DNA of 64,000 nucleotides from Minisyncoccota bacterium (GCA_036399335.1 DASWNF010000014.1:108033-172032); one strand, 5' to 3'; shown: positions 1 to 48,180, numbered from the stretch's first letter. Program-made: numbers and translations. Notes: generated by a model not told the origin, from the sequence alone.

Positions 1-33
1 TCATGTGATACAATACTAGCACAGCCCATTTTT

Positions 34-1038
34 ATGTCAAGTCCTTCCGACGATGTCCAGGTAGCCGCCGCCCCGCTCAAGATCCGGGACCAAGCGCTCG
101 ATAGTACGCTCCGGCCTTCGGCCTGGGACGAATATGTCGGCCAGGGGCACGTAAAGGCGAACGTACAGATAGTCCTCCAGGCCGCAAAGAAGCGCGGCGA
201 CATGCCCGAACACCTCCTCTTCTACGGGCCGCCGGGCGTCGGCAAGACCACGCTCGCCCACTTGATCGCGCGCTCGCTTGAGGCTCCGTTCAAGAGCACG
301 TCGGGCGTCGCCATCGAGCGCGCGGGCGACCTCGCCGCCATCCTGACGAACCTCGAGCCGGGCACCGTGCTCTTTATCGACGAGATCCACCAGCTCTCAT
401 CCAAGATCGAGGAACTCCTCTACCCGGCGCTCGAGAACGGCACGCTCGACATCGTACTCGGTAAAGGCCCGTCGGCGCGCACCGTCGAACTCGCGCTTCC
501 GCCCTTTACGCTCGTGGGTGCCACTACCCGCGTTGCGCAATTGTCGGGCCCGCTTCGCTCACGCTTCGGCGGCGGCGTGTACCAGCTCGATTTTTATAGC
601 GACGACGACCTCCGTGCCATCATCGCGCGCTCGGCGCGCGTCCTCTCCGTGTCCGCCTCAAGCGAAGTCGTCGACAAGATAGCCTCGCGCAGCCGTGCTA
701 CGCCGCGCGTGGCTAACGCCCTACTGAAGCGCGTGCGCGACTTCGCGCAGGTGCACGAGCAAGACCTCTCGCCGCAAGTGTGCGATGAAGCCTGCAAACT
801 CTTCGGCATCGACTCGCTCGGCCTCACCAAGGACGACCGCCGGTACCTTGAGACCTTGCGCGACGCATTCAAGGGCGGGCCGGCCGGCCTTCGCGCGCTC
901 GCGAGCCATCTCCACGAGGACCCGGATACCGTCGAGAACCTCTATGAGCCGTACCTCCTCCGCCTTACCTTCATTGAGCGTTCGCCGCGCGGACGCATCC
1001 TGACCGATAAGGGCCGCGAGTACCTCGCTAAGGGATAA
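34..1038 (+). CDS. ruvB: Holliday junction branch-migration ATPase RuvB
   Basis: 334 aa ORF; Walker A GPPGVGKTT, Walker B FIDEIHQL, RuvB C-terminal winged helix; extended -10 TGATACAAT ~19 nt upstream, no SD. Confidence 0.9.
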   Translation: MSSPSDDVQVAAAPLKIRDQALDSTLRPSAWDEYVGQGHVKANVQIVLQAAKKRGDMPEHLLFYGPPGVGKTTLAHLIARSLEAPFKSTSGVAIERAGDLAAILTNLEPGTVLFIDEIHQLSSKIEELLYPALENGTLDIVLGKGPSARTVELALPPFTLVGATTRVAQLSGPLRSRFGGGVYQLDFYSDDDLRAIIARSARVLSVSASSEVVDKIASRSRATPRVANALLKRVRDFAQVHEQDLSPQVCDEACKLFGIDSLGLTKDDRRYLETLRDAFKGGPAGLRALASHLHEDPDTVENLYEPYLLRLTFIERSPRGRILTDKGREYLAKG

Positions 1039-1219
1039 GCCCGAAGATGAGCGGGCGGCACGAGCTTACGAAGTCGCACTGCCCCGTCGTCGTGTCGCAA
1101 ATTTCTACTTTCTCCGTATCGCAGGATTCGATGATGAATCCAAGCGCAATAAGTATCGCCGCGAGCGCGAGGAAATAGACCGTAAGGGGTATGGTTCCAG
1201 GGGCTTCGGGCTCAGGCAT
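1028..1219 (-). CDS. small hypothetical membrane protein (one TM helix, Cys-rich N-terminus)
   Basis: 63 aa ORF with hydrophobic segment LALAAILIALGFII; TAGTAT -10-like box 9 nt upstream; overlaps ruvB stop by 11 nt; weak. Confidence 0.2.
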   Translation of the reverse strand: MPEPEAPGTIPLTVYFLALAAILIALGFIIESCDTEKVEICDTTTGQCDFVSSCRPLIFGLIP

Positions 1220-1254
1220 ATGCCCATACTAGCAGTAGCCGCACCGGTTTTGCA

Positions 1255-1503
1255 TCATCCTCCGCTTTTTTTGATGAGTTCGAGCTTCTTCGTGCGCGGC
1301 CACGCTTTAATCTCCGCTTCGCGCCTGAGGGCGCTTGAGCGGTCTTCGCAGGTTTCCGTATGCGCCATGCGCACGGCTTTTTTCGCGGCCGTGTAGTTAC
1401 TCCCCCTCCCGCTTACATGCTCCCTAAAGCGCCGCTCGACGTCCGTCGTGATGCCGGTGTAGAGCGTACCGTCAGCGCACTCGAGCAAGTAAACGAAGTA
1501 CAT
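1255..1503 (-). CDS. GIY-YIG nuclease superfamily protein (UPF0213-like)
   Basis: Internal Met start of the 1255..1911 ORF; 82 aa MYFVYLLECADGTLYTGITTDVERRFREH matches GIY-YIG core; the 5' extension of that ORF overlaps the next gene and is composition-biased, so it is rejected. Confidence 0.7.
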   Translation of the reverse strand: MYFVYLLECADGTLYTGITTDVERRFREHVSGRGSNYTAAKKAVRMAHTETCEDRSSALRREAEIKAWPRTKKLELIKKSGG

Positions 1504-1519
1504 CAGTTTATGCGCAGCC

Positions 1520-1939
1520 CTATGACGCAGACTGCTCGCAATACCTCTTGAAGGAATTGAGGATGGCCTGCCATCCAGCACGCTGAAGCTCGTGCGCGTT
1601 TTCCGCCTCCGGCTCGAATGTCTGGGTGATATGGGTCGTCTCACCTTCCTGTGCAAAGACGGTTTCCACCTTTCGGCCGTCCGCGAGCGTATACGCGAGG
1701 CGCTCATGCATGACCACGTCATCATAGGTGCCGGTGAGGTCGAATCCCTCGCTCCCGTCTTTGGCTTCCATGCGCGAAAGGAAGACGCCTCCGGCACGCA
1801 CGTCATTCTCTGCGTGAGTCGTATGCCAGTCATCGGACGCGCTGTTCCACGCCTTGATGGCCTCGGTGCTCGTAAAGTCTCTCCATACGTTCTCAATGGG
1901 AGCGTGTACACGCGTCTCTACGGTAATTCGTTCGTCCAT
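1520..1939 (-). CDS. SRPBCC/AHSA1-family (activator of Hsp90 ATPase homolog-like) protein
   Basis: 139 aa; N-terminal ITVETRVHAPIENVWRDFTSTEAIKAW typical of AHSA1/SRPBCC ligand-binding fold. Confidence 0.7.
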   Translation of the reverse strand: MDERITVETRVHAPIENVWRDFTSTEAIKAWNSASDDWHTTHAENDVRAGGVFLSRMEAKDGSEGFDLTGTYDDVVMHERLAYTLADGRKVETVFAQEGETTHITQTFEPEAENAHELQRAGWQAILNSFKRYCEQSAS

Positions 1940-2069
1940 GGGAAAAGTATACCAATAGCGCCTCCGTGCAGTACTCGAAAGACGGTTTCAAATTAAATGG
2001 ACGTCTGCGGCGTTTCGGCACTTTTTCGCAACGTATGATAGGTTTTGTTTAGGTAACAGGAGAACCGAA

Positions 2070-2480
2070 ATGAGTAGTCCCGGCTTTGGCGCTAGGGCTC
2101 GGTCCCTGCGCAAGAAACTTGGATTAAACCCGATCCAGGCAGCCCTTGCGCTGAACATTAAGGCTCCCTCGCGAATTGAGGATATGGAACGCACCGGGGT
2201 TAGTCCCTGGACCTTCGAGGCACTCGAGTCTGCGTATTCCGCATTTCTGCACGCTGGCCCAACGTCTAGGGGGAGGAACCTGCTTTTCGGGCAGCTCCCT
2301 ATCTCAGTGGCGCGTAGCCTTCTACGCTTATCCGTTGAGGAAATAGCTGAGCGGTGTGGCTACTCCGTTTCCTTCTGGATGAGGATGGAGGCGGACCATC
2401 GGCCCCTCCGTGCTGATGTACTTAAACGGCTCGAAGCCGACGTTAAAGAAGAGGTTCGAAGGACTATTTTAAAATGCTAA
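2070..2480 (+). CDS. hypothetical protein with helix-turn-helix-like segments (possible XRE-type regulator)
   Basis: 136 aa; SD AGGAGAACC 6 nt upstream of ATG; two HTH-like segments (LGLNPIQAALALNI, LSVEEIAERCGYS); lies at the left edge of the low-GC island. Confidence 0.5.
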   Translation: MSSPGFGARARSLRKKLGLNPIQAALALNIKAPSRIEDMERTGVSPWTFEALESAYSAFLHAGPTSRGRNLLFGQLPISVARSLLRLSVEEIAERCGYSVSFWMRMEADHRPLRADVLKRLEADVKEEVRRTILKC

Positions 2481-2522
2481 TCGCCCACAGGTCGCCCGAC
2501 CTAGTTGGGCGATTCTGTTTAT
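2479..2522 (+). terminator. rho-independent terminator after the HTH gene
   Basis: 9-bp stem AATCGCCCA/TGGGCGATT followed by CTGTTTATT. Confidence 0.5.
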
Positions 2523-2537
2523 TGCTGGCTTAGGAAC
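2522..2537 (+). repeat. short copy (L) of the interspersed repeat family: TTGCTGGCTTAGGAAC
   Basis: Shares TTGCTGGC...GGAAC ends with the family consensus; sits directly after a terminator like copies A, G, H and K. Confidence 0.45.
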
Positions 2538-3002
2538 AACTAAGCCTTATAAAAAGTGGGCCGTTGCGCGAAGCAACGGCCCGTGGATCCTACCAGACGA
2601 GTGAGTTTCCTCACTAGCCAAAACGTCGCACCTGAAAGCGCATAATGACTCGTCTCCGAAGCTTCGGCGGGTGGCTTGAGCCCTCGCACGATACGGCTAT
2701 CCATTTGCCCTTAACGAGCTTTTGAAAGCTGCTTTTAGCCACTACTTTGGGGCCTTAGCTGTCGGTTAGGGATTATCCCTCTATGGTTTCCTTGACCAAG
2801 GATTTTCAGTCTTAATGCGGAAACCACCTCAGATCCGTATTTAGCCTAGCACCATCAAAGGACTTGTCCAGTACAGGTGTGGATGCTGGGTACGCGTCGC
2901 ACCGCTTCCGGTGCGGCCACGAGACACACGGCACTTTGCCGCTCTGACGCACTGCCCGCAGCCAGCGAGAAGCCCGCTTCCTCACGGCAGCGGGCTTTTT
3001 TC
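2538..3002 (+). ncRNA. candidate structured non-coding RNA (~460 nt), unclassified
   Basis: No credible ORF on either strand; many local hairpins (GGGCCGTTGC/GCAACGGCCC, CCGAAGCTTCGG, AGGGATTATCCCT, GCACCGCTTCCGGTGC); ends in a strong terminator AGCCCGCttcctcacggcAGCGGGCTTTTTT at 2971-3002; flanked by repeat copies L and A. Confidence 0.35.
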
Positions 3003-3007
3003 TTACC

Positions 3008-3028
3008 GGGCGGTAGGATGTTGGAATC
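3008..3028 (+). repeat. partial copy (A) of the interspersed repeat: GGATGTTGGAATC
   Basis: 3' half of the consensus ...GATGTTGGAAC; immediately follows a terminator. Confidence 0.4.
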
Positions 3029-3030
3029 TA

Positions 3031-3531
3031 CTAATCCTGTGCAACTTCTTCCGAGACACTTTGGTTGCGCGTAAGTATTAATCGAGGTTCACCCGTATCG
3101 TCGTAATTTTCCTCTCTGCCGGTAATTTGGAAATCATAGGATTGATACAACTTAACCGCATTATTTTCAGGGTGAACTCTTAACCAGACTTGCGGAGCAC
3201 TCTTCAGGTGCTCAAGGATTTGTTCCAATGCCCTGCGTCCAAGGCCTTGTTTCTGATATTCAGGGTCTATCGCAAGGCCGTTGATGTACGCTCTTCCATC
3301 TTCTTCTATTGCGTACGAGGCTGCCCCCACTACCTGGTCTCCTCGTCTTATAAAAAACATTGGTCCCTTCCTATACTCCTCTTCAGCCTCTGAACGATCT
3401 TGAGCGGCCGCATATGTTTTGCCCTGGACTTTCTTCTCCAACGCGACATACGCCTCAAGGTCGTCGAGCGTCATGCGTTGAAGCTCTATAGGCATTTGGG
3501 GGCCTCGCTCGCCCTTACTTTCAACTGACAT
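3031..3531 (-). CDS. GNAT family N-acetyltransferase
   Basis: Acetyl-CoA binding motif QKQGLGRRALEQILEH; 3031..3582 ORF with likely start at an internal Met; low-GC codon usage. Confidence 0.7.
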   Translation of the reverse strand: MSVESKGERGPQMPIELQRMTLDDLEAYVALEKKVQGKTYAAAQDRSEAEEEYRKGPMFFIRRGDQVVGAASYAIEEDGRAYINGLAIDPEYQKQGLGRRALEQILEHLKSAPQVWLRVHPENNAVKLYQSYDFQITGREENYDDTGEPRLILTRNQSVSEEVAQD

Positions 3532-3589
3532 GTCGAAAGTATAGCAGCCAAGCAAATGCTGGGCTCTGAAACGATGTCGCATCCTGCTG

Positions 3590-4063
3590 TTATAAGTAGG
3601 ATGCGAACTCTTCGTCAGAAAGTTCTAGAAGGGTCGCGTCTCGCGAAATGGGGAGCGTGGTCATCTCAACTCCCATCCAAGGTAAGGGGACGAAATTCTC
3701 CGCCTCTTCCACTGAGGTAAACTCCACTTCGGCACGCATTAAACCCTCATACTTGCCACGATATACCTGTATAGAGATTTTTGGGTTCTCAGAAATGTCG
3801 TAGCGATCTCTAACTAAGGCGTCTGGTGCTACTTTCTTGAGTGTATCGAACTCCTCAGCTGAAATTTCCTTCTTCTCTCGAGTGCGCTCTAAACTAGATA
3901 AAAGTTCCTTTCTTTCATAAAAGTACTTCTCATTTATTTTGGAAATCCTCTCCTCAATATTACCTTCGTTCTTTAGGATATGTCGTTCGTAGTGAAGTGG
4001 GGCTATGCCAGACATGTTAGGCATTTCCCTTACATAAAACTTTCGCTCGATTTCATTTTGCAT
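3590..4063 (-). CDS. CYTH-domain protein (triphosphate tunnel metalloenzyme family)
   Basis: 157 aa; N-terminal EIERKFYV signature of the CYTH/CyaB-ThTPase family; AT-rich; 8 nt upstream of the GNAT gene, so probably co-transcribed. Confidence 0.65.
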   Translation of the reverse strand: MQNEIERKFYVREMPNMSGIAPLHYERHILKNEGNIEERISKINEKYFYERKELLSSLERTREKKEISAEEFDTLKKVAPDALVRDRYDISENPKISIQVYRGKYEGLMRAEVEFTSVEEAENFVPLPWMGVEMTTLPISRDATLLELSDEEFASYL

Positions 4064-4067
4064 AATC

Positions 4068-4370
4068 TCAGGCAGCTTTACATACTTTTTTGGTCACGGC
4101 ATCAACAAATAAACGGAAAGCCGGTCGCCTCTCTTTCTCCCAAATAACCCTTACTCCAAGGATGTGCTTATTGGGGCATGCAAATGTTTCTTCCGCGGTA
4201 GGGACTGCCGAATTGATGATGCGATCTAAGTACATACGCCTCAGCGTACCCGGTCCGTCTTTTTGATAAAGGCAGATGTGCTTCGAACATTTTTCGCAGG
4301 CGATATCCAAAAGTCGAGCATATCCCCCACGAGACTTTCTGTACTTGTCGCTTTTAAGGAGACTAGTCAT
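4068..4370 (-). CDS. small Cys-rich (zinc-ribbon-like) hypothetical protein
   Basis: ~100 aa from an internal Met (MTSLLKSD...); CEKCSKHIC...CPNKH spacing; TACAAT -10-like box 9 nt upstream; the 5' extension of the ORF runs through repeat copy B and is rejected. Confidence 0.45.
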   Translation of the reverse strand: MTSLLKSDKYRKSRGGYARLLDIACEKCSKHICLYQKDGPGTLRRMYLDRIINSAVPTAEETFACPNKHILGVRVIWEKERRPAFRLFVDAVTKKVCKAA

Positions 4371-4389
4371 GCAGTGATTGTAACAACGA

Positions 4390-4418
4390 TTGCTGCACTC
4401 TGGGGCGATGTTGGAACC
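4390..4418 (+). repeat. interspersed repeat copy B: TTGCTGCACTCTGGGGCGATGTTGGAACC
   Basis: Near-consensus copy in the gap between two minus-strand island genes. Confidence 0.6.
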
Positions 4419-4425
4419 AGTATTT

Positions 4426-5097
4426 CTAGTATTTGTCCCCTTCTTCGATAGCAATAACTGGCAATTTATATCCTTCGGTTAGAAGTACCTGCTGTATTTC
4501 ACTTACTCGACCCCTCGGCGCTTCAATATGAGTGAATTTCTTGATAGAAATTGGCTCTAATACCCTATCTTCATGCAAGTCGACAAATTCAGAGCCATGG
4601 GTAATTGCATAGGCTTCGCGTTCAACGCCAATTAGAATTGGGTAGTTGGATGATATATCTGTACCGCCGCGAAGAAGAAGATAAAAAAGCGATTGGTTTT
4701 TGTGGGTAAACTTCGCTATGAATGTCGCGGCCTTACTCCTATAGCCAACAGTAAACGGAAGCGGTACGCGTTCCTTCCAAGCGACCCATACGCTTGGAAG
4801 GAGGTAGCGACAGCACCAGAGGCAACGGTTACAGAGCTCTTGCAAACTTCTCTGGCTTTTTGGGAAAAAGAGGCTTGCATACAAGCGTGCGTACCCTCGC
4901 GAACGGGCAAATGATACTGACCGTGCATGCGGACGCTTTTGGTCTGAAGCGTCGTCATAAATAGAGAGTCCACCTTCGTGCAGTATTCCTTTTAAAATAT
5001 CCATGACTTCTCCATTTTCATATTTATAGCGGCCGGTTCCATGCCAAGAACCAATGTTCTCGTAAAGCTCTTCAATTTTTGAGCTGGGTTCACGCAT
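4426..5097 (-). CDS. hypothetical protein (223 aa), low-GC island cargo
   Basis: Long ORF with AT-rich codon usage distinct from the core genome; no recognisable domain. Confidence 0.5.
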   Translation of the reverse strand: MREPSSKIEELYENIGSWHGTGRYKYENGEVMDILKGILHEGGLSIYDDASDQKRPHARSVSFARSRGYARLYASLFFPKSQRSLQELCNRCLWCCRYLLPSVWVAWKERVPLPFTVGYRSKAATFIAKFTHKNQSLFYLLLRGGTDISSNYPILIGVEREAYAITHGSEFVDLHEDRVLEPISIKKFTHIEAPRGRVSEIQQVLLTEGYKLPVIAIEEGDKY

Positions 5098-5123
5098 AGA
5101 TATAGAAACTATACCAATACTAA

Positions 5124-5149
5124 TTGCTGGACTCTGTGATGTTGGAGCC
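5124..5149 (+). repeat. interspersed repeat copy C: TTGCTGGACTCTGTGATGTTGGAGCC
   Basis: Shortened copy of the consensus. Confidence 0.5.
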
Positions 5150-5205
5150 CTTTTACAGTATGCAATTAGAAGCCCCCGGGATGTTGGTCCCGGGGGCGAG
5201 GCGCT

Positions 5206-5853
5206 TCACGAGAGCGCGAGGGCTTGGAGATTTTCTCGTGCCTGCGGCTCAAGGTGTTTGAAGTGCGGGGTGAGGTAGATCTTTGGGCGTTCGAGGAACG
5301 TGGCAGCCCACATCTTCCTGCCCTCATCGTACTCGGCGCGTGTATACCGCGGCTCGTATTCGAGCCAGATGGCTTCCGTTTGCGACTGGAAGTACGCAGG
5401 GTCCTGTCCCAGCCCCCAGAGATCGAGGTCGATGAGCGGTGCGACGATGTTGACGAAGCGCTCATCCACGCATTCCAGGGTATGGGTGATAGTCGCGGTA
5501 ATGCCCTGGTACACGAGCTCTTCAAGAGGCGGGTGCCGTTCACCGTCACGGCGTTGCAGGTCTTCAATTGCCAGCCGAGCGCTTTCACGCTCGCTCTCAC
5601 CGTGTTCACGACCGACCTTAAGCCAGCGGTCGTGGCTCACGATAAGGAATTTAAGCAGAAGGAGCTCGTTCCCCATCAACACGAGGCCGCGCGCCCCTTC
5701 CAGCATGCCGAGGATATGGTTGGCATCATGGTACGTCCGCCACCTCTCGGAATAGGAGCAGCAGAGAGGCTCGACTGCCGCATAGGGGATGCCGAGCTCG
5801 CCGTAGATTTCGGTAACGGCCAGCCGCAGTTCGTCTGTCGGACTAAATTTCAC
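5206..5853 (-). CDS. hypothetical protein, possible HD-type metal-dependent phosphohydrolase
   Basis: 215 aa; GTG start with strong SD GAGGAGGG 4 nt upstream; His/Asp motifs (RTYHDANH, IVSHD) reminiscent of HD hydrolases; a competing 224-aa antisense ORF (5224..5898) is judged less likely. Confidence 0.45.
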   Translation of the reverse strand: MKFSPTDELRLAVTEIYGELGIPYAAVEPLCCSYSERWRTYHDANHILGMLEGARGLVLMGNELLLLKFLIVSHDRWLKVGREHGESERESARLAIEDLQRRDGERHPPLEELVYQGITATITHTLECVDERFVNIVAPLIDLDLWGLGQDPAYFQSQTEAIWLEYEPRYTRAEYDEGRKMWAATFLERPKIYLTPHFKHLEPQARENLQALALS

Positions 5854-5979
5854 AACGCCCTCCTCAAAGGTCTATGGTTTAAGCCAGCTTCACGATAATA
5901 CACAATAGTGGATATGTATAGGACGATTGGGCCTGGGATGATGCCGAGGTTTTTATATACAAAACCGCCCCAATCATCG

Positions 5980-5996
5980 TTGCTGGGACGGGCTTC
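5980..5996 (+). repeat. degenerate copy (M) of the interspersed repeat: TTGCTGGGACGGGCTTC
   Basis: Left half plus GGGACG core only; intergenic. Confidence 0.25.
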
Positions 5997-6005
5997 ATGG
6001 TCTGA

Positions 6006-6263
6006 TTAGACCGTTTCGAGCTTGGACGGGGGGACATTGGCTTGGTAACCAGGTCCCCCATTGTCGAAGTTGACTCGTACCACTCCCCCCGCATCTTCGG
6101 GGAGATGCTGGAGTCGAGAGTCCCAGACGTCGCCAATCTCTCCTTTCGGAATCGGCGAGTATCCAGGGAAAGGAACCTCCTCGGTCGTTCGCACCCTGCG
6201 ACCGCCCAGAGAAGGACGAACGGGTACTTGCCCGGCGACTCGGTCATCTTTGATAACAGACAT
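6006..6263 (-). CDS. hypothetical small protein (85 aa)
   Basis: ATG preceded by a canonical SD AGGAGGTG at 8-nt spacing. Confidence 0.5.
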   Translation of the reverse strand: MSVIKDDRVAGQVPVRPSLGGRRVRTTEEVPFPGYSPIPKGEIGDVWDSRLQHLPEDAGGVVRVNFDNGGPGYQANVPPSKLETV

Positions 6264-6316
6264 AACACTCACCTCCTGTCGCTATCTAACTACGAATGCA
6301 CCGCTCTGTCCATTAC

Positions 6317-6338
6317 TGCTCTGGGACGATGTTGGAAC
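6317..6338 (+). repeat. interspersed repeat copy D: TGCTCTGGGACGATGTTGGAAC
   Basis: Consensus core; lies 14 nt upstream of a small plus-strand ORF. Confidence 0.55.
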
Positions 6339-6351
6339 TTTTCTGTACGAA

Positions 6352-6540
6352 ATGCCGCCCATTGACCCGGGCGGCACGGCTCGAGACTTACCGTGTCTCG
6401 AGAGCCTCAACCCGCGCAGGAGGCGGATGCTGGAGGCCTGGGAAAAGTTGGCCGCTCTACCGACCCAACTGGTGCTCTTAAGAAATGCTTTGATCAACGC
6501 TTATCAGCGGGGTTGGCCCAAATGTTACTTTCTGAGATGA
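6352..6540 (+). CDS. hypothetical small protein (62 aa)
   Basis: ATG 14 nt downstream of repeat copy D; no SD; Arg-rich; could be a spurious ORF within the high-GC patch. Confidence 0.25.
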   Translation: MPPIDPGGTARDLPCLESLNPRRRRMLEAWEKLAALPTQLVLLRNALINAYQRGWPKCYFLR

Positions 6541-6625
6541 CCCACCTTTCAAATCACTAAACGTAACAGTTTCACCTTTAGAGCCAAACCCGTATCAACT
6601 TCAACGAGGAAATAGAAGTGTAGTT

Positions 6626-6655
6626 TTGCTGGCAGTCTGGGACGACGTTGGAACC
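6626..6655 (+). repeat. interspersed repeat copy E: TTGCTGGCAGTCTGGGACGACGTTGGAACC (near-consensus)
   Basis: Full-length copy. Confidence 0.65.
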
Positions 6656-6659
6656 TTTA

Positions 6660-6693
6660 TTTAAAAGACCACCCTCTCGCCGCAGCGAGAGGG
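6660..6693 (-). terminator. rho-independent terminator of the minus-strand gene 6715..6975
   Basis: Stem CCCTCTCGC/GCGAGAGGG followed by TGGTCTTTT on the minus strand. Confidence 0.5.
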
Positions 6694-6714
6694 GATCTCG
6701 CGGACATTGGGTGG

Positions 6715-6975
6715 TCAGCCTTGTGGCGGCTTATACGGCCTGGTACCGCCGCGCATGGCCATGACAGGAATCGGGAACGCATCGTTGAAGTCGTGGCCGC
6801 CTTCCTCTTCGAGGATCAGGACGACGGCATCGCAAATCGAGTCGAGCTCTTCTTGTTGCATGCCCATGAACTTCTTGGAATAAAGACGCGCCATGACATG
6901 CGAGGTTGTCGGGTCGATGCTGTTCTCCCCCGTGTCATCCGAAATGAAGGTTACGGTCGTCGAGTCGAGGAGCAT
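6715..6975 (-). CDS. hypothetical small acidic protein (86 aa)
   Basis: AGGAG 10 nt upstream of ATG; followed by a terminator. Confidence 0.4.
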   Translation of the reverse strand: MLLDSTTVTFISDDTGENSIDPTTSHVMARLYSKKFMGMQQEELDSICDAVVLILEEEGGHDFNDAFPIPVMAMRGGTRPYKPPQG

Positions 6976-7141
6976 TCCGAGTCGCTCCTGATAGAGCTGT
7001 TGAATCCGAGCACGAATTCTGCGCTTCTGCTCCGCTCACTTGCGTAGAAGCCTGAAATATCAACGATCGGCATGACGCCTCTCCCTTTGTGCTGTTGCAG
7101 GGATTAATATAGCACATATTCACCAGCTTGTCATCACTTCC

Positions 7142-7171
7142 GTGCTGGCAGTCTGGGACGATGTTGGAACC
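7142..7171 (+). repeat. interspersed repeat copy F: GTGCTGGCAGTCTGGGACGATGTTGGAACC (consensus)
   Basis: Full-length copy. Confidence 0.65.
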
Positions 7172-7326
7172 TTTCATACGCTGTGGTAGCTTCTTAGCAC
7201 TTGGCAGGAGGCGTCGGAAAGCTACGGACTATCCGCAGGGATAGAAACGGCACGAGTCGGCATGCATCTGTCCGTTGAACCTACGTAACAGCGAAAGCGA
7301 GGTTGGCAGTTCGGAAAGACGACATC

Positions 7327-7358
7327 GGAGCTTGGTTAAACTAAACCAAGCTCCTTTT
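7327..7358 (+). terminator. rho-independent terminator
   Basis: GGAGCTTGGTTaaactaAACCAAGCTCC followed by TTTTATT; repeat copy G begins right after it. Confidence 0.6.
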
Positions 7359-7359
7359 A

Positions 7360-7388
7360 TTGCTGGCAGTCTGGGACGACGTTGGGAC
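7360..7388 (+). repeat. interspersed repeat copy G: TTGCTGGCAGTCTGGGACGACGTTGGGAC
   Basis: Full-length copy immediately after a terminator. Confidence 0.65.
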
Positions 7389-7694
7389 TTTTTTATCCCC
7401 AGATAGGCACTTATGCTAAACTCGTCACAGATGGCGTGATGCCTGGTACGTAGTACGGAGCAACCCTCTTAGGGCCACTGCTAGTTACCAGTCACGAAAG
7501 GCTTGAAAACGCACCCGTAGCACCCACCATAGCCCTTCCCAGCCCCCTGTTGAGTAGTGCGACCTACTCGTCGCAACAGGGTCGTGGAGGGGTTACTAGG
7601 CAGAAGAACGGCATGCGGCTGGAAGGAGTGTGCGTAAACTCCACTGGTGACATCGCGCCATTGCAGAGAGCACCCGTAAGGGTGTTTTCTGTTT
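7389..7694 (+). ncRNA. candidate structured non-coding RNA (~300 nt), unclassified
   Basis: No credible ORF; nested helices (CCCTGTTG...CAACAGGG enclosing GAGTAG/CTACTC); ends with a GNRA-capped hairpin CACCCgtaaGGGTG plus TTTTCTGTTT terminator at 7671-7694; bounded by repeat copies G and H. Confidence 0.3.
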
Positions 7695-7697
7695 CCC

Positions 7698-7724
7698 TGC
7701 TGGGGTCTGAACGATGCTGGAATC
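7698..7724 (+). repeat. interspersed repeat copy H (divergent): TGCTGGGGTCTGAACGATGCTGGAATC
   Basis: Diverged copy following a terminator. Confidence 0.45.
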
Positions 7725-7734
7725 AAGCTGGGTA

Positions 7735-7765
7735 TTGACAGACTTATTTAAGAGCAGTAAAAAAT
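7735..7765 (+). promoter_or_regulatory. sigma70-like promoter TTGACA-17 nt-TAAAAAAT
   Basis: Near-consensus -35 with 17-nt spacer and an A/T -10; upstream of the 7832 ORF. Confidence 0.45.
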
Positions 7766-7831
7766 ATTACCGCCAAGGTGGCGGTTGCCTGCGAGGAAAT
7801 GTGGGTAAGCATCCTGGAATGGGAGGCTCTA

Positions 7832-8185
7832 ATGAGTGAATCTTTTGTTCTTACGTCGACAGTCAGCTGGGCACGGTATTGGGCTCTCGTGGCCGTGCAC
7901 ATGGAGGTGAAATGCAATCCCTTAATCGCTCAAACGTGCCCGCACAAGGTCATTGTCGAACCCATCGAGAATAACGAGCGCAGCGTAATCGTTCGTGGCA
8001 TGTGCGAAGGGCAGCTCTTCAGGCTGGTTTGCCAGATTTTCCAAGTTCGCACCGGCGGGTGGCGCCTCGTGCGGATTCGTGGTTACGTCGGTACGAACAA
8101 CAACATAAACATGTCTCCCGTGAATTTCGAAGGGTACGAGGCGGCTTGGACGATCATGGAGCGAAATTATAACGAAGTCGACTAG
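7832..8185 (+). CDS. hypothetical protein (~117 aa)
   Basis: Start chosen at an internal ATG preceded by GGGAGG; followed by the terminator at 8199-8250. Confidence 0.4.
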   Translation: MSESFVLTSTVSWARYWALVAVHMEVKCNPLIAQTCPHKVIVEPIENNERSVIVRGMCEGQLFRLVCQIFQVRTGGWRLVRIRGYVGTNNNINMSPVNFEGYEAAWTIMERNYNEVD

Positions 8186-8198
8186 GCCCTGCCTATTC

Positions 8199-8250
8199 AG
8201 AGCCCTGACGGAGAGCCCTCTTGCTCTGCATCAGGGCTCTTCTAATTTTA
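8199..8250 (+). terminator. rho-independent terminator
   Basis: AGAGCCCTGA...TCAGGGCTCT stem followed by TCTAATTTTA. Confidence 0.45.
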
Positions 8251-8274
8251 AGTTGGCAGACTAGGTTTCGAACT
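8251..8274 (+). repeat. variant copy K of the repeat family: GTTGGCAGACTAGGTTTCGAACTC
   Basis: J/K subfamily (TTGCTGGCAGAyTAGGTTTCGAAC); marks the right border of the low-GC island, just upstream of yebC. Confidence 0.5.
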
Positions 8275-8312
8275 CACCTCCTTCTACGTATACGCTTTGG
8301 TATACTCCAACC

Positions 8313-8873
8313 ATGTCAGGACACAGCAAATGGGCGCAGATAAAGCGGCAGAAAGGCGTCACGGACGCAGCGCGCAGCCGCGTATTCTCTAAATTCGCGC
8401 GGCTTATCACCATTGAAGCAAAAAAGTCGGGAGGCAATGCATCAGCACCCGGACTGCTCGCCGTCATCGCGCGCGCAAAGGCGGCGAATATGCCCAAGGA
8501 CAACATCGAACGCGCGGTCACGAAGGGCGCATCGAAAGAAGCCGGGGACTTGCACGAGGTTACCTACGAATTCTACGGTCCGGGTGGCGCTGCCGTTATC
8601 GTAAACGCCCTCACGGACAACAGGAACCGCACGACGCAGGAAATAAAACACCTTCTCACGAAGAATAACTTCGAGCTCGGCACCCCGGGAAGCGCTACGT
8701 GGGCCTTTAAGAAGAATCCAGACGGTTCCTTCACGCCGAACGAACCGTTGATGGACGTCGCGGGCGACGACGAGGAAGCGCTCGGCCGCCTGCTCGAGGC
8801 GTTCGACGAACACGAGGACGTACAGAACGTCGTGACGAATGCGCGCGGGTACGAGAACACGAGCGATGAGTAG
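8313..8873 (+). CDS. yebC: YebC/PmpR-family transcriptional regulator
   Basis: MSGHSKWAQIKRQKG N-terminus diagnostic of YebC; precedes ruvC as in many bacteria; TATACT -10 box 6 nt before ATG. Confidence 0.85.
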   Translation: MSGHSKWAQIKRQKGVTDAARSRVFSKFARLITIEAKKSGGNASAPGLLAVIARAKAANMPKDNIERAVTKGASKEAGDLHEVTYEFYGPGGAAVIVNALTDNRNRTTQEIKHLLTKNNFELGTPGSATWAFKKNPDGSFTPNEPLMDVAGDDEEALGRLLEAFDEHEDVQNVVTNARGYENTSDE

Positions 8874-8879
8874 TCCTGT

Positions 8880-9356
8880 ATGAGGGTGCTCGGCATAGAC
8901 CCGGGGTATGACCGGCTCGGCATGGCCGTGCTTGAAGGCGACCCGAGCCGCCCGACATTAGTCTGGAGCGAATGCGTGCTTCCAGAAAAGGGAAACCCTG
9001 AAGCCCGGCTTGCGCGCGTGTATGCCGAAGTCGCCAGCGCCCTCACGACCTATGCTCCCGATGTGCTCGCCATCGAGACCCTCTTTTTCAGTACCAATAA
9101 GAAGACGGCGCTCGCCGTGGCCGAGGCGCGTGGCGCCATACTCGCAGCTGCGGGTATGGCGCACATTCCCGTGCGCGAATTCTCCCCCGGACAAGTAAAG
9201 CTTGCGGTTACCGGCCACGGCGCCGCCGATAAGGCCGCGATTGCACGCATGCTTCCCCATCTCCTCACCCTCCCGCCAAAGAAGCGGCTTGATGACGAGC
9301 TCGATGCCATGGCGGTCGCGCTTGCCGGACTCGCAGCAAGGCTTCCCTCACGCTAG
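8880..9356 (+). CDS. ruvC: crossover junction endodeoxyribonuclease RuvC
   Basis: MRVLGIDPG...AIE...DAMAVAL catalytic motifs of RuvC. Confidence 0.85.
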   Translation: MRVLGIDPGYDRLGMAVLEGDPSRPTLVWSECVLPEKGNPEARLARVYAEVASALTTYAPDVLAIETLFFSTNKKTALAVAEARGAILAAAGMAHIPVREFSPGQVKLAVTGHGAADKAAIARMLPHLLTLPPKKRLDDELDAMAVALAGLAARLPSR

Positions 9357-9463
9357 CCGCTATCCACACACCAAGCGCCGAAAATGGGCTTGCAAATCAA
9401 CTCGCTTTTGTTCAAATAGAGAGGCTTCGAACGCGGGGCACATATTAGTATTAGCAACGGCGT

Positions 9464-9631
9464 ATGGATGAAGAAGAAGAGGAAACCCTTGATATCGATG
9501 ATGCAGCAGTAGTGCTCGGTGATGAGGACGAGGATGAAGACGATGACGACACGGAAGAAGTGCCCGAAGGCTTCCACGAAGTCGACCCCTTCATCGGCGG
9601 CGTCGCCCCAGACGAGGAAGAACCAGTCTAA
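9464..9631 (+). CDS. small highly acidic hypothetical protein (55 aa)
   Basis: Uninterrupted ORF MDEEEEETLDIDD...; followed by a strong terminator hairpin at 9632-9663; not in the ORF track (<60 aa). Confidence 0.35.
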   Translation: MDEEEEETLDIDDAAVVLGDEDEDEDDDDTEEVPEGFHEVDPFIGGVAPDEEEPV

Positions 9632-9673
9632 ACAAACGGCCCCGCACGGGGCCGTTTGTGTTAGGATAAACGC

Positions 9674-11938
9674 ATGAAAAAAGCCAAGAAAGGCCTTGGT
9701 TCCCTCCTCCACAGCTCACATCCGTTCGTACGGCTGGGCTTCGTGGCAGTCGGTATCGCACTCGTCTTCTTGGGCGGGAGCATCCTCTGGGTAGCCTTTA
9801 CGCCAATCCCCGCACTTAATACGTTCGACCCGTCCAAGGTCGCGATGTCGACCAAGATTTACGACCGGACCGGCAAGACCGTGCTCTACGACCTCAACCG
9901 TGACATGCGCCGCACGATCGTCCCGCTTTCGGACGTCTCCCCCAACCTCCAGAAGGCGACCCTCGCCATCGAGGACTCCGATTTCTATTCGCACGGCGGC
10001 ATCAGCATCACCGGTACGGCCCGCGCCCTCCTTACGGACGTCGTAAGCATGTCATTCGCCCAAGGTGGCTCAACCATCACCCAGCAGGTGGTGAAAAACA
10101 CCATCCTGACCGGGAAGAAGAGCGTCATCCGCAAGGCGCAGGAATGGATTCTCGCCATCCGCTTCGAGGGTGAGTACACCAAGGATGAGATCCTTGAGTT
10201 CTATTTCAACGTATCGCCGTACGGCGGTACGCTCTACGGCGCCGAGGCTTCGAGCCGCGCCTTCTTCGGGAAGAGCGCGAAAGACCTCACCCTCGCCGAA
10301 GCTGCATATATGGCTTCCATCCCCCAGCGCCCGACCTACTACTCCCCGTACGGGAATAACCGCGAAGCGCTCGATGAAAGGAAGAACCTCGTGCTCGCCC
10401 GCATGCTAAAACTCGAGCAGATCACTAAAGAGGAGCATGACGCGGCGCGGAACGAAAAGGTTGCCTTCAGCCGCCAGCAGAACAACTCCATCATCGCGCC
10501 GCACTTCGTCTTTTACATCGAACAGCAGCTCGAGGAGATGTACGGCCCCGAGGTCGCGAACCAGGGCTATAGTGTTATCTCGACCCTGGACGTCGACCTC
10601 CAGCGTGAGGCCGACACCATCGTGAACCGCCACGCAATTGCGAATACCTCGCGCTTTAATGCAAGCAATGCGGCGCTCGTCGCCATCGACCCGAAGACGG
10701 GGCAGGTGCTCGCCATGGTCGGCTCTCGCGACTACTTCGATAAGGAGATTGACGGTAACTTCAATGCTGCGCTCGCGCTCCGGCAGCCGGGCTCGGCCTT
10801 TAAGCCGTTCGTGTATGCCGCAGCTATCGCCAAGGGCTACACGCGCGACACCATTGTCTTCGACCTCCCGACACAGTTCTCGACGACCTGTTCCCCAGCG
10901 GACAACCAGAACGGCGAACCGCCGTGCTACGCCCCAGGTAACTTCGACGACAAGTTCCGCGGCCCGATGACCTTCACGACGGCGCTTGCGCAGTCGATCA
11001 ATATTCCGGCCGTGAAGATCCTCTACCTCGCAGGCATCCCGAACGTGCTCACGCTCGCAAAGAGCATGGGGCTCAATACGCTCGGCGAACCCCGCGACTA
11101 CGGGCTCTCCCTTGCGCTCGGTGCAGCCGAGGTACGCCTCCTCGACCTGACGGCCGCCTTCGCGGGCTTCGGTAACGAGGGCATGGTGAATAAGCCGTAC
11201 GGCATATTGAGTGTGTCTGATGCCGCCGGGAAGACGCTTGATGACTTCAAGCCGGAGCCCAAGCGCGCCATCGACCCTGAGGTAGCGCGCGAAGTTTCCT
11301 ACATGCTTTCAAATAACGCCGCGAGAGAGAACGCAGTGAACCCATTCAACTTCCCTGGGTATGATGTGGCAGCGAAGACCGGTACGACGAACGAGTCGCG
11401 TGACGTATGGACCGTCGGGTACACGCCGTCTATCGCCATCGGTGTCTGGGCCGGAAACAACAACAACGCGCCCATGGTGAAGCAGACGGCCGGCTTCATC
11501 GTCGCGCCTATGTGGAATGAGGTCATGCGGTACGCGCTCGGTAAGTACCCGCAGGAATTCTTCAGCGCGCCGCCCGAGATACCGGCTGACGCCCCTGCAG
11601 CGCTCCGTGGCGTGTACTCGGGCCCGACGGGCGTCCACGACATCCTCCACTGGGTGAATAAGGACAACCCGCGCTCCGGCGGCTCATCACAAGGCGATGG
11701 CCAGTACCGCTACTGGGAATACCCTCTTTCGGGATGGTTTGTAGGTGGCATGCCGGACCCTAACGCAACGACGACTGCGTCAACGACACCAAGCTTCGAC
11801 TTCCTCTTCGAAGGCGAACCTGACGGCGATGGCGGCCAAGGGGATCCCGGAGACAACGGCAACAACGGGAACGGTGACGGAAACGGTAATGGCGACCCTC
11901 CCCGGCGCCCAGAGGACGACGCCGAAGACGCCGCCTAA
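9674..11938 (+). CDS. class A penicillin-binding protein (PBP1A-type glycosyltransferase/transpeptidase)
   Basis: 754 aa; N-terminal TM; GT51 motifs (EDSDFYSHGG, GGSTITQQ); transpeptidase motifs SAFK, SNN, KTGT; low-complexity G/N/D tail. Confidence 0.9.
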   Translation: MKKAKKGLGSLLHSSHPFVRLGFVAVGIALVFLGGSILWVAFTPIPALNTFDPSKVAMSTKIYDRTGKTVLYDLNRDMRRTIVPLSDVSPNLQKATLAIEDSDFYSHGGISITGTARALLTDVVSMSFAQGGSTITQQVVKNTILTGKKSVIRKAQEWILAIRFEGEYTKDEILEFYFNVSPYGGTLYGAEASSRAFFGKSAKDLTLAEAAYMASIPQRPTYYSPYGNNREALDERKNLVLARMLKLEQITKEEHDAARNEKVAFSRQQNNSIIAPHFVFYIEQQLEEMYGPEVANQGYSVISTLDVDLQREADTIVNRHAIANTSRFNASNAALVAIDPKTGQVLAMVGSRDYFDKEIDGNFNAALALRQPGSAFKPFVYAAAIAKGYTRDTIVFDLPTQFSTTCSPADNQNGEPPCYAPGNFDDKFRGPMTFTTALAQSINIPAVKILYLAGIPNVLTLAKSMGLNTLGEPRDYGLSLALGAAEVRLLDLTAAFAGFGNEGMVNKPYGILSVSDAAGKTLDDFKPEPKRAIDPEVAREVSYMLSNNAARENAVNPFNFPGYDVAAKTGTTNESRDVWTVGYTPSIAIGVWAGNNNNAPMVKQTAGFIVAPMWNEVMRYALGKYPQEFFSAPPEIPADAPAALRGVYSGPTGVHDILHWVNKDNPRSGGSSQGDGQYRYWEYPLSGWFVGGMPDPNATTTASTTPSFDFLFEGEPDGDGGQGDPGDNGNNGNGDGNGNGDPPRRPEDDAEDAA

Positions 11939-12189
11939 CGAAGCTCCATCACTTGAATACCGTCTCGGTTGAGGCGGTTTTTCAATGCGTCGAGATTGAG
12001 GAGTATGGCCGACTTAAGGACGGGCGGCACGCTAAGCACCAGGCGGCCATCCGTATGCGTGACCTGGCTTGGGGTTATGGGTACGCCCGTGACGGCGGTG
12101 ACTGCCTCCGCAACCATTTGCCTGATCCCTGCCTCCCGAAGGCCGGGCATTGGGTGCCGGGCGAGGATGTCCTTGATGGAGAATTCCAT
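11935..12189 (-). CDS. DUF721 (DciA-like) protein
   Basis: 84 aa; composition and size like DUF721 proteins that typically sit beside dnaA/dnaN/recF; assignment from motif memory only. Confidence 0.4.
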   Translation of the reverse strand: MEFSIKDILARHPMPGLREAGIRQMVAEAVTAVTGVPITPSQVTHTDGRLVLSVPPVLKSAILLNLDALKNRLNRDGIQVMELR

Positions 12190-12252
12190 GCCTCTAGCAT
12201 ACCTGCCTACTCAAGGAGAACGAAGTGATTAAAAACGGAGGTAGTCCGGGGG

Positions 12253-12810
12253 TTATACGAGGCCGCTTTGCAGCAGCTTTTTAGTAAACCGGTGCATTTG
12301 GGGATCGAGGATTGCTGGGTCAGCAGCTAGCACTTCTTCGTATCCAAACCATCGGTAGCCATGGAATTCGCTTGTGTCGAAAGTAATATGCTGCCTTGAG
12401 TCCCCTTTCACTACATACCAGAAACTCACGTCGGTATGCCCTGCAGTTAAGCCAACAGTAACCGTACGCGTGAGGAAGATTGGTAACTCAGAAATAAAGT
12501 CTGCATTTATATTAAGTTCTTCTTGTATTTCTCGCTCAACTGTCGTTTTTGGATGCTCGCCCTTCTCGACGTGCCCGCCGCTTGGCAGCCAAAGGCAGGC
12601 TTTAATATGGTCCATAAGCAGAATCTTTTTTGCCTCTGGATCTACAACAACAAAGTATGAAACAAGATGTTTGGGTGGCACGTCTGGTTTCTCAATGCGA
12701 AATATCTCTACTTCGCTCTCGATCCAATTAACAGCATCGGTAATTGTTTGCTTCTCTAGATCATCATATGGGCTTATGGCCCGTATGAGTGCGTGTATTT
12801 GCTCTCTCAT
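12253..12810 (-). CDS. NUDIX hydrolase
   Basis: Nudix box GGHVEKGEHPKTTVEREIQEELN. Confidence 0.8.
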   Translation of the reverse strand: MREQIHALIRAISPYDDLEKQTITDAVNWIESEVEIFRIEKPDVPPKHLVSYFVVVDPEAKKILLMDHIKACLWLPSGGHVEKGEHPKTTVEREIQEELNINADFISELPIFLTRTVTVGLTAGHTDVSFWYVVKGDSRQHITFDTSEFHGYRWFGYEEVLAADPAILDPQMHRFTKKLLQSGLV

Positions 12811-12827
12811 CAGGTTAGAGACTGGAC

Positions 12828-13928: not shown

Positions 13929-14170
13929 GAAATGCTTATTATTAGGGGTGTTGATACTGGGGAAACGAAACTCTATCCAGTATATATGCCGCGTAAGGGT
14001 CTGCCCACGAACTGATAACTCGGTTGCTGCACGACTTCTGCTTGGGGAGAACTATAAGCCCGTAAAAGCTTGCGTGGATAAGTAGTGGTGATTTTCATGA
14101 CTTGTACCCACCTATCCACTGAGCTTTTCATTGTTTATTCATAACTTCTCCCCAGCCTTATGCCTCTTGC
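13929..14170. promoter_or_regulatory. dnaA-dnaN intergenic region with DnaA-box-like sites (candidate oriC)
   Basis: CTTATCCAC (complement of GTGGATAAG), CTATCCACT and CTATCCAGT resemble the TTATCCACA consensus; AT-rich. Confidence 0.45.
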
Positions 14171-15818: not shown

Positions 15819-15971
15819 ATGCCTAAGCGAACGTACCAACCGAAGAAAAGGAAGCGCGCCCGAACCCACGGTTTCCTTGCCCGTACCGCGACCCCTGGAG
15901 GGCGCCGCGTGCTTCTTGCCCGCCGCCGCAAAGGACGCGCAAGCCTGACGGTTTCGAAGAAAGTAAGGTAA
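15819..15971 (+). CDS. rpmH: 50S ribosomal protein L34
   Basis: 50 aa [45 protein letters not shown]; not in the ORF track (<60 aa); directly upstream of rnpA. Confidence 0.9.
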
Positions 15972-15977
15972 TACGCC

Positions 15978-47010: not shown

Positions 47011-48180
<1,170 letters not shown>

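Follow-up and report, generated by a model that had tools for sequence, protein, structure and literature searches.

Between ruvB and yebC of a Minisyncoccota bacterium lie 7.27 kb of DNA that are a real, horizontally acquired accessory island at a recurrent insertion site. The stretch analysed, referred to here as the window, is 64,000 nucleotides (nt) long (GCA_036399335.1 DASWNF010000014.1:108033-172032), and within its island positions 2522-8273 are an array of about ten cassettes, on average ~570 bp in length, cut by co-oriented intact or decayed copies of a 33-nt motif, D4 (TTGCTGGCAGTCTGGGACGAYGTTGGAACCTTT). Alignment traces this repeat to the 3′ end of tRNA-Gln. Three of the genes in the array, which encode a GNAT acetyltransferase, a putative zinc-ribbon protein (Znr) and an orphan protein of 223 amino acids (aa; p223), recur elsewhere as single-gene cassettes bounded by the same repeat. 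The array has probably arisen as cassettes without an integrase accreted in tandem, site-specifically, at tRNA-Gln-like sites through a recombinase acting in trans, where we infer both the recombinase and the mobility.

The array and its repeat

D4 starts at window positions 4389, 6310, 6626, 7142, 7360 and 54946, always on the plus strand, and its 18-nt core has six matches in the window where 0.1 would be expected. Decayed copies were found with a position-weight matrix and by gapped alignment, each judged against a shuffled-sequence null, and lie at or above the 99.9th percentile of that null; for two of them there is a base-by-base alignment to intact copies flanking homologous cassettes of other genomes. 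The repeat sites of the island, and those of a second mini-array further along the window, are as follows.

2522-2537 (+): internally deleted copy, TTGCTGGC-TTAGGAAC, directly after the terminator hairpin (2490-2514) of the helix-turn-helix (HTH) regulator gene
3011-3029 (+): degenerate copy, GGTAGGATGTTGGAATCT, just outside the GNAT stop codon; matrix score 9.0, with no shuffle reaching 8; gapped score 12, the 99.9th null percentile
3556-3585 (+): degenerate copy between the stop codon of the CYTH gene and the GNAT promoter; gapped score 13; aligns with an intact motif of locus L153
4389-4421 (+): copy with one mismatch in the 18-nt core; matrix score 26
5123-5152 (+): degenerate copy, TTGCTGG-ACTCTG---TGATGTTGGAGCC, upstream of the p223 promoter; gapped score 15, above the null maximum of 14; aligns with intact copies of loci L324 and L327
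6310-6342 (+): copy with the core matched at 18/18 positions
6626-6658 (+): copy with matrix score 55
7142-7174 (+): copy matching the consensus at 32/33 positions; independent assemblies break here
7360-7392 (+): copy with matrix score 48
7697-7722 (+): degenerate copy with TTGACA 13 nt later; gapped score 15
8253-8273 (+): variant D8, the last site of the array, TTGGCAGACTAGGTTTCGAAC; its reverse complement resembles a tRNA-Gln 3′ end; 27 nt upstream of the yebC -10 box
54946-55577 (+): second mini-array, between nusA and pilB, with D4 at 54946-54978 and D8 at 55554-55577 upstream of the pilB promoter
54987-55532 (-): 181-aa open reading frame (ORF) of the second mini-array, secreted or membrane; low GC, with a GC content at third codon positions (GC3) of 0.37

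Six of the eleven repeat sites in the island are degenerate, the intact copies lying at 6.6-7.4 kb, nearest yebC, and the decayed ones at 2.5-5.2 kb. A preliminary description of this region had the island bounded by repeats, and there are indeed copies at both edges (2522-2537 and 8253-8273), but the repeats are not a feature of the edges only and are present between nearly every gene. The HTH terminator hairpin together with the left part of the adjoining repeat (2481-2528) is 88-92% identical to sequences in L006 (19748-19797) and L161 (1223-1270), the three contexts being otherwise unrelated. In both of the latter a hairpin like the HTH terminator's is followed by the full motif, and some cassette ends therefore share more than the 33 nt.

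Across the arrays compared, and with D4 read as written above, 64 cassettes have their longest ORF antisense to the motif and 43 have it in the sense direction, while the orientation of the motif itself is constant. Antisense cassettes, read in the sense of the gene, are composed of GTTCCAACATCGTCCCAG-ACTGCCAGCAA, 6-15 nt, a -10 box (TATACT, TATAAT or TAGAAT), 5-8 nt, ATG, the gene, its stop codon, 0-20 nt and the next repeat, and this compact layout implies leaderless or nearly leaderless mRNAs. The distance from stop codon to ATG in compact cassettes is ~50-65 nt, and is occupied by the motif and the -10 box. Sense cassettes have a TTGACA of their own 4-11 nt past the repeat and a hairpin-plus-T terminator ahead of the next one. 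The cassettes of the window obey the same layout rules, as is seen with the promoters of Znr (-10 TACAAT at 4382-4377, 6 nt before the gene), GNAT (-10 TATACT at 3543-3538, 6 nt ahead of the ATG) and p223 (TGGTATAGT plus 10 nt ahead of the gene). With its orientation constant, with sites between convergent 3′ ends, and with its distance to promoters unphased, the motif behaves as a boundary mark and not as a promoter or operator.

Of 24 positions in the reverse complement of D8, 21 agree with the 3′ end of tRNA-Gln; for D4, once a 5-nt insertion in the T-loop is allowed for, the figure is 22 of 26. The best match among six tRNA species from the same loci is tRNA-Gln (the others being those for Arg, Lys, Leu, Pro and Gly). 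These alignments show the repeat to derive from the tRNA-Gln 3′ end, T-loop to acceptor end, plus the 5-nt insertion. At 15 other loci a genuine tRNA-Gln 3′ end (UUG or CUG anticodon) is in the D8 position and the array follows it directly, usually downstream of dnaX; one of the loci examined, L083, has an extra 55-nt partial duplicate of tRNA-Gln. In all the genomes examined it is the same side of the array that is closed by a D8-type site. Every relative with D4 copies also has D8 upstream of yebC, as has L003 (the variant was seen in L003, L004, L007, L029, L032, L063 and L147), and the 65-bp gap of L024 has a weaker match. ARAGORN and Rfam give no tRNA near 8.2 kb in the window, where there is just the 21-nt D8 pseudo-site. 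As in tandem tRNA islands, direct repeats from the 3′ part of a tRNA flank each unit.

A cassette of L153, set between motif copies at 1048 and 1592 and with neighbours other than those in the window, has 71% DNA identity to the GNAT cassette over 527 nt, a length that reaches from one repeat to the next and takes in the -10 box and ATG; in L088 and L136 there are more distant GNAT cassettes, each preceded by a repeat. In L191 a Znr homologue of 61% identity makes up a cassette by itself, bounded by motif copies at 6972 and 7328. Homologues of p223, found by a protein search that was independent of the motif, are placed exactly between D4 copies in L324, where dnaX, tRNA-Gln and D8 are followed by 11 co-oriented D4 copies, and in L327, elsewhere in the chromosome; L326 has a more distant homologue without the repeat. 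In every one of these recurrences the orientation of the gene relative to the motif is the same as in the window, and the homology between cassettes of different genomes ends at the motif.

D4 (0-3 core mismatches) is also found in relatives whose RuvB is just 77-85% identical, clustered inside their own ruvB-yebC inserts and oriented as ruvB is, with seven copies each in L007 and L032, four in L063 and one each in L004 and L029. A metagenome scan with an exact 20-mer gave at least 120 matching contigs, and among the matches listed ~72 are genuine array loci (GC 0.28-0.64) and ~48 are unrelated high-GC contigs. All copies are co-oriented in 44 of the 45 multi-copy loci among these listed matches, which have up to 8 copies per array; in L324, the longest array, it is 11 of 11. 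Over 232 distinct instances of the motif conservation is limited to ~35 nt and the flanks are unrelated. The repeat recurs in more than 80 loci, and recurrent neighbours of the arrays are dnaX, pilB, PBP, yebC/ruvC, dnaN and dnaA. Segments between repeats (124 in all) are 493 bp long at the median (10th-90th percentile 322-880), so that the arrays have what is characteristic of integrons, co-oriented sites that separate single-ORF cassettes of ~0.5 kb median. When the 124 cassettes were compared almost none were alike.

The 19-mer core matches at least 120 high-GC viral contigs (L204-L323), in a conserved phage gene encoding VWDDVGTFDG, and none has the extended motif; the ~48 high-GC metagenome loci are of the same unrelated class, with the 20-mer inside a gene. 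These 19-20-mer matches, lacking the extended motif, are judged to be a coding coincidence that contaminates exact-match scans for the repeat. No full 26-nt motif is present in the viral contigs, and hence no helper phage or integrative element that carries it was found there. That the motif is itself coding sequence was considered, as it reads LAVWDDVGTF in one frame, and was rejected on finding in-frame stop codons in some array copies. A replication-polar motif of the KOPS or Ter kind is ruled out by L007 arrays that are just 5 kb apart and point opposite ways. A literature search turned up no paper that gives the motif sequence or describes such arrays in Patescibacteria.

The ruvB-yebC junction

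The order ruvB-yebC-ruvC-PBP is conserved among relatives. The comparison covered 80 loci around RuvB homologues in one-genome-per-species data, with the window proteins mapped on by tblastn (E<=1e-5), and for the ruvB-yebC gap 64 of the relatives' loci were informative. RuvB identity is 49-91% across the 80 loci and 72-91% where the gene order is kept. The proteins at 72-91% are from metagenome-assembled genomes mostly labelled Parcubacteria, Paceibacteria or Kaiserbacteria, which places the source of the window among the Patescibacteria. The gap is 100 bp or less in 33 of the 64 (often 10-60 bp), compared with 7.27 kb in the window, and 13 relatives have unrelated inserts of their own, 1.2-7.4 kb long, at the junction, which is therefore an insertion hot spot with the island accessory to it. 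No cargo gene, from GIY-YIG through p94, is at this site in any relative, and it is such absence from the same site in related genomes that generically marks a genomic island. The accessory nature that the preliminary description had proposed for the region was thereby borne out.

The genes that flank the array are:

34-1038 (+): ruvB, the left core flank (Pfam RuvB_N, AAA and WHD_RuvB)
1028-1219 (-): orf63, a small ORF overlapping the end of ruvB, with copies beside ruvB in L003 and L147 that are 47-62% identical
1255-1503 (-): GIY-YIG gene (Pfam), left block
1520-1939 (-): AHSA1/SRPBCC gene (Pfam), left block
2070-2480 (+): HTH_31 regulator gene (Pfam), left block
8301-8873, promoter included (+): yebC, the right core flank, with an extended -10, TTTGGTATACT, and the ATG 6 nt downstream

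The location previously assigned to the island, between ruvB and yebC-ruvC (8313-9356), agrees with the gene map, and with dnaN and dnaA 4-6 kb to the right the region is near the origin. The limits assigned to it, 2481-8312, need revision on the left. The only gene of the gap that is common to the closest relatives, L003 and L147, is orf63, which is probably ancestral and not cargo; relative to other genomes the inserted DNA starts near 1220, and so takes in the GIY-YIG, AHSA1 and HTH genes. The HTH gene is where a regulator-like gene had been noticed, at what was then taken for the left edge. An AHSA1 homologue of 65% identity is in a tRNA-Gln-linked island of L086.

A promoter of the form TTTTG(G/C)TATA(C/G)T, with the ATG 6-7 nt later (8296-8315 in the window), is kept upstream of yebC in ~40 relatives. 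The same form is also present upstream of many cassette genes, and its being shared in this way would imply that leaderless mRNAs are widespread in these bacteria.

Composition along the island, assessed as GC and as GC3 per gene, is not uniform, and the trough reported earlier is real: the 2-kb segment from 3001 has a GC content of 0.462, the minimum of the 64 kb (mean 0.569, standard deviation 0.033, and so 3.2 standard deviations below it), and between 3000 and 5250 GC goes down to 42-50% against a window mean of 57%. The extent given for it, 3.0-7.0 kb, is too great. Low GC is confined to the ~2 kb at 3031-5097, where four genes only (GNAT, CYTH, the CxxC protein Znr and p223) have a GC3 of 0.42-0.47 compared with 0.65-0.81 for core genes. 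The genes at 5.2-8.3 kb (HD hydrolase, p85, p86 and p94) are host-like at 0.57-0.74, with HD hydrolase at 0.71 and p85 at 0.57, and those of the left block (1255-2480) have values of 0.58-0.73. The four low-GC genes would be the compositionally most foreign of the cassettes.

A 314-kb JGI metagenome contig (3300034138, Ga0334955_000011) contains the window. Two independent Logan contigs from run SRR10954984 are 100% identical to window positions 1-7172 and 7143-16130, and with such identity between independently assembled contigs the sequence is not a chimera or an assembly artefact. Both stop within the repeat copy at 7142-7174, because of the repeated 32-mer there, as is expected of assembly.

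How the array may have formed

Direct repeats from a tRNA 3′ end that flank tandem inserts are the classical footprint of integration by an integrase. In the site-specific model preferred here each cassette would enter as a circle with one copy of the repeat and recombine with a chromosomal repeat, in the way that tandem integration at a tRNA attachment site proceeds. This would call for a site-specific recombinase, for which a tyrosine recombinase is the most plausible candidate, with its gene not in the arrays but elsewhere in the genome or on a helper element. After insertion cassettes and old copies of the repeat would decay in place.

Several results weigh against this model, among them those concerning the enzyme. 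No island ORF has a match to a recombinase family, nor has anything in window positions 1-12 kb, and the sole tyrosine recombinase of the 64 kb (39062-40057) is, as had been noted at the outset, ~31 kb away. It is Xer-like, passing for XerA with 250 bits (cut-off 220) and falling short of the integron-integrase model TIGR02249 with 135.5 bits (cut-off 265). No recombinase family is recurrent within 8 kb of the arrays at 81 loci, and tblastn with the Xer-like protein finds nothing in the same loci, a search that would miss serine or very divergent enzymes. On inspection the hexamers of the 33-nt repeat are direct and not inverted, so that it is without the inverted-arm symmetry of tyrosine-recombinase core sites; asymmetric sites are known for some recombinases, for instance the shufflon recombinase Rci. 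Presence/absence polymorphism was not seen, nor were circular junctions or empty internal sites; the cassettes are nearly all unique, and movement is deduced from three recurrent families only. The left block (1255-2480) has no detectable copies of the motif, and the model does not account for the first insertion, the empty ruvB-yebC junctions being mostly without D8. Polar decay away from the tRNA or yebC end is seen in the window, L007 and L032, but over 30 arrays it is not significant (mean rho 0.06, p = 0.6), and the gradient of the window is not general; growth of arrays at that end alone, which would suit the window, is thus unsupported over the 30.

The lack of any recombinase near an array in the 81 loci is what would be seen if there were no dedicated enzyme and the repeat served as portable homology, either for RecA-dependent exchange after natural transformation or for deletion and re-insertion between direct repeats. 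Type IV pilus and competence proteins are encoded (pilB and pilC are in the window), such exchange also predicts co-orientation, and ~33 nt is, for direct repeats, near the minimum length for homologous recombination. Homology alone, however, leaves unexplained the near identity of the sequence across genomes of 28-64% GC, and does not account for a derivation from a tRNA 3′ end with arrays starting exactly at tRNA-Gln, the classical signature of an integrase attachment site; we regard this explanation as unlikely.

Less likely still is that the motif is an operator or activator site and the array a variable region of small co-regulated genes, keeping in mind that TGGGAC and TGGAAC 11 bp apart is a layout bound by OmpR/PhoB/WalR-type response regulators, that in this 6-5-6 direct repeat the hexamers are conserved and the spacer is more variable, and that promoters abut the motif on both sides (TTGACA at 4-11 nt for sense genes, the -10 box at 13-24 nt for antisense genes). 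An operator is hard to reconcile with a motif whose orientation is constant whatever that of the gene, in 44 of the 45 listed metagenome loci and with 64 antisense to 43 sense cassettes, and whose distance to the -35 or -10 box is unphased. The motif occurs in addition at 3′-3′ junctions, such as 6626-6658 beside a minus-strand terminator, it derives from the tRNA-Gln 3′ end, where arrays start, and it is where cassette homology between genomes stops. A sigma-54, extracytoplasmic-function (ECF) or fixed -35 promoter element was also considered and on inspection rejected, the GG/GC spacing being a misfit and the distance to the -10 box varying from 13 to 24 nt. It is very improbable that the repeats are incidental and that the island is a decayed prophage, integrative element or defence island of the ordinary kind, for although there are PHROG matches among the cargo (GNAT, HD hydrolase and CYTH-like) and an HTH regulator at one edge, no structural, replication, integrase or defence genes were found in the island, the full 26-nt motif is absent from viral contigs, where the 19-mer matches are coding coincidences, and the repeat, known from more than 80 loci, separates nearly all the genes.

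Tandem site-specific accretion, the preferred explanation, has counterparts among known systems, and the likenesses are partial in each case. With integrons and CALINs (reportedly defined by Cury et al. in 2016 as attC arrays lacking an integrase) the arrays share rows of mostly single-gene cassettes of ~0.5 kb, diverse and largely orphan, co-oriented sites, fixed chromosomal places, and an integrase that is sometimes not adjacent. A classical integron is nevertheless ruled out, as the site is not palindromic, is too short and is without intI. Where attC sites are imperfect palindromes of 57-141 nt with R''/L''...L'/R' boxes (RYYYAAC ... GTTRRRY), the 232 instances of the present element have ~35 conserved nt and no inverted partner; it is a non-palindromic element of 33-35 nt, and the intergenic space is too short for 57-141 nt. 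There is no IntI-type recombinase beside the array, the best tyrosine recombinase reaching 135 bits against a cut-off of 265, and, unlike those of integrons, the cassettes bring their own promoters and lie in both orientations. Inspection of the consensus also found no pair of 11-nt inverted arms around a 6-8-nt spacer, as the ~28-nt sites of Xer/dif modules (IMEX, pdif) have.

Integrase-less cis-mobilizable elements accrete in tandem beside integrative elements, with the enzyme supplied in trans. They, and the ssrA islands of Dehalococcoides, resemble the present arrays in having tandem units, some without an integration module and dependent on an enzyme in trans; they are typically several kb or more in size, in contrast to the single-gene units here, and no module was found in any of the arrays. 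Several ssrA islands integrate in tandem at one small-RNA gene, those with vcrABC being ~12 kb, and about half have an integration module (PMC3146451). The tycheposons of Prochlorococcus integrate at a tRNA 3′ end and are flanked by direct repeats of partial tRNA, and in tycheposon islands newcomers push older elements inward while degenerate remnants and extra partial tRNAs accumulate (bioRxiv 10.1101/2020.12.28.424599). In the present system, likewise, the repeats are tRNA-Gln derived and co-oriented, and many arrays abut tRNA-Gln. Tycheposons are, however, multi-gene elements with their own tyrosine or serine recombinase, whereas the units here are of ~0.5 kb with one gene, and in contrast to tandem tRNA islands with an integrase in each, or at least some, of the elements, no integrase or other recombinase was found in or near the arrays of the 81 loci. 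The internal repeat, moreover, is a fixed 33-nt derivative instead of a plain partial tRNA, and the terminal site of the window is a tRNA-like pseudo-site before yebC and not a tRNA gene. The array can be classed as integron-like and tandem tRNA-island-like while departing from both in their defining features, that is, as tRNA-linked accretion reduced to single-gene cassettes.

Patescibacteria have tiny genomes with few recognised mobile elements. Possible, though we hold it only tentatively, is that Paceibacteria have a gene-capture system new to description, in which a chromosomal recombinase works in trans on a 33-nt site derived from tRNA-Gln to insert and excise promoter-bearing single-gene cassettes, giving integron-like arrays at tRNA-Gln and at pseudo-sites before core genes such as yebC, pilB and dnaN, and that this is a main route of gene gain in their ultra-small reduced genomes. 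Up to 13% of Patescibacteria genome length has been attributed to horizontal transfer with no mechanism described, and the 2025 study of that transfer is silent on integrases, tRNA sites, cassettes and repeats (PMC12455944). If true, a conserved repeat on either side of hundreds of unrelated one-gene cassettes, all at a small number of fixed sites, would provide a mechanism, would define a testable recombination site, and would serve as a sequence tag for mining the accessory genes of the lineage from metagenomes, as attC does for integrons. It also suggests that tRNA-targeted integration and integron-like capture may be the ends of one continuum.

Cargo of the cassettes and further features of the window

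The contents of the array, between the repeat copies given above, are:

2541-2996 (no strand assigned): non-coding cassette with terminators on both strands, 2558-2582 (-) and 2968-2998 (+)
3031-3531 (-): GNAT acetyltransferase (RimI-like) cassette; Pfam Acetyltransf_1 2e-16, NCBIfam rimI 5e-13
3590-4063 (-): CYTH triphosphate-tunnel protein; PDB 2FBL and 3TYP ~6e-9, PHROG 6660; low GC
4068-4370 (-): Znr, a CxxC...CxxxH protein and putative zinc ribbon; low GC
4426-5097 (-): p223, an orphan single-gene cassette, 223 aa; -10 TATAGT at 5113-5108
5206-5853 (-): HD-type phosphohydrolase; PHROG 19425 4e-20; terminator at 5172-5197
6006-6263 (-): p85, with Shine-Dalgarno AGGAGG
6345-6623 (+): short cassette with a 37-aa ORF (6427-6540) and AGGAGG ahead, read from the sequence
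6661-7139 (-): p86 cassette, with p86 at 6715-6975, promoter at 7134-7106 and terminator at 6693-6672
7177-7357 (+): 181-nt non-coding cassette with an intrinsic terminator at its end (7327-7354); folding z-score -2.5
7778-8245 (+): last cassette, with an orphan ORF of 94-135 aa (p94) ending at 8185 and a terminator hairpin at ~8205-8245

The cassettes of the window thus encode an acetyltransferase of the RimI type, a CYTH enzyme, an HD hydrolase, a tautomerase that is probably frameshifted, and orphans, and at least two of the units are non-coding. The GNAT, CYTH and HD-like (PHROG 'phosphohydrolase') genes had each been recognized as such in the preliminary description, and the family matches agree. 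A long non-coding stretch of the same account, 5854-8312, turns out not to be empty: small ORFs, terminators and copies of the motif make up five or six short cassettes there. The defence or toxin-antitoxin function for which a search of the cargo had been suggested did not materialize, PADLOC giving weak HTH matches only (4e-4), with nine further proteins left without a match; the cargo is miscellaneous, with no sign of a coherent function of either kind. The cassette ORFs of other arrays resemble, by eye and without family searches, a HAD hydrolase, an ITPase, a ClpP-like protease, a peptidase and membrane proteins.

For p223, p85, p86, p94 and Znr there are no relatives in Pfam, NCBIfam or PDB, and for the 37-aa ORF at 6427-6540 no family match. 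Homologues of p223 form 22 clusters, none with a Pfam domain, and the sole organism names given are Parcubacteria and Kaiserbacteria, so that on these names the protein appears so far to be confined to Parcubacteria-group bacteria. The joined frames of 6715-7077 (-) match Pfam Tautomerase with an E value of 7e-4 and 19.8 bits (cut-off 22), and p86 is probably the 3′ part of a frameshifted 4-oxalocrotonate-tautomerase-like gene with its start near 7077, beginning MPIVDISGFYAS; the frameshift could reflect either a pseudogene or a sequencing error.

Rfam gives no RNA family for the motif or for the non-coding cassettes, that at 7177-7357 included, apart from one sub-threshold match. A 172-nt fragment at 2595-2766 (-), in the first cassette, resembles 23S rRNA (LSU_rRNA_bacteria 1031-1226, 36.6 bits, E 1.7e-8, below the gathering score), and in a narrower Rfam scan it was not listed again. 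It covers helices 41-45, the L11/L10-binding arm being 45 nt long instead of 106, and for the minus-strand RNA of its cassette (2541-2996) the folding z-score is -3.4. The fragment may be rDNA that was captured, or else a mimic that binds ribosomal proteins.

Other features of the window and its surroundings touch on the same subjects. A second CYTH-domain gene (186 aa; L001 830-1390) is just left of the window start, directly upstream of ruvB and beside a pilB-like ATPase. A NUDIX gene between p84 and dnaN (12253-12810) has a foreign composition, with a GC3 of 0.44, and this place next to dnaN is a second variable spot, at which the relatives L004, L007 and L011 carry D4 and D8 copies. A D8-like sequence, TGGCAGAATAGGTTCCAGAC, is at 41548-41567, just upstream of an Exo_endo_phos gene (41592-42359) and in a lower-GC stretch of ~40-46 kb that has four tRNA genes. 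At 45701-48180 there are two long ORFs rich in acidic D/E degenerate repeats, which account for the repeat families D1, D2 and D5-D7.

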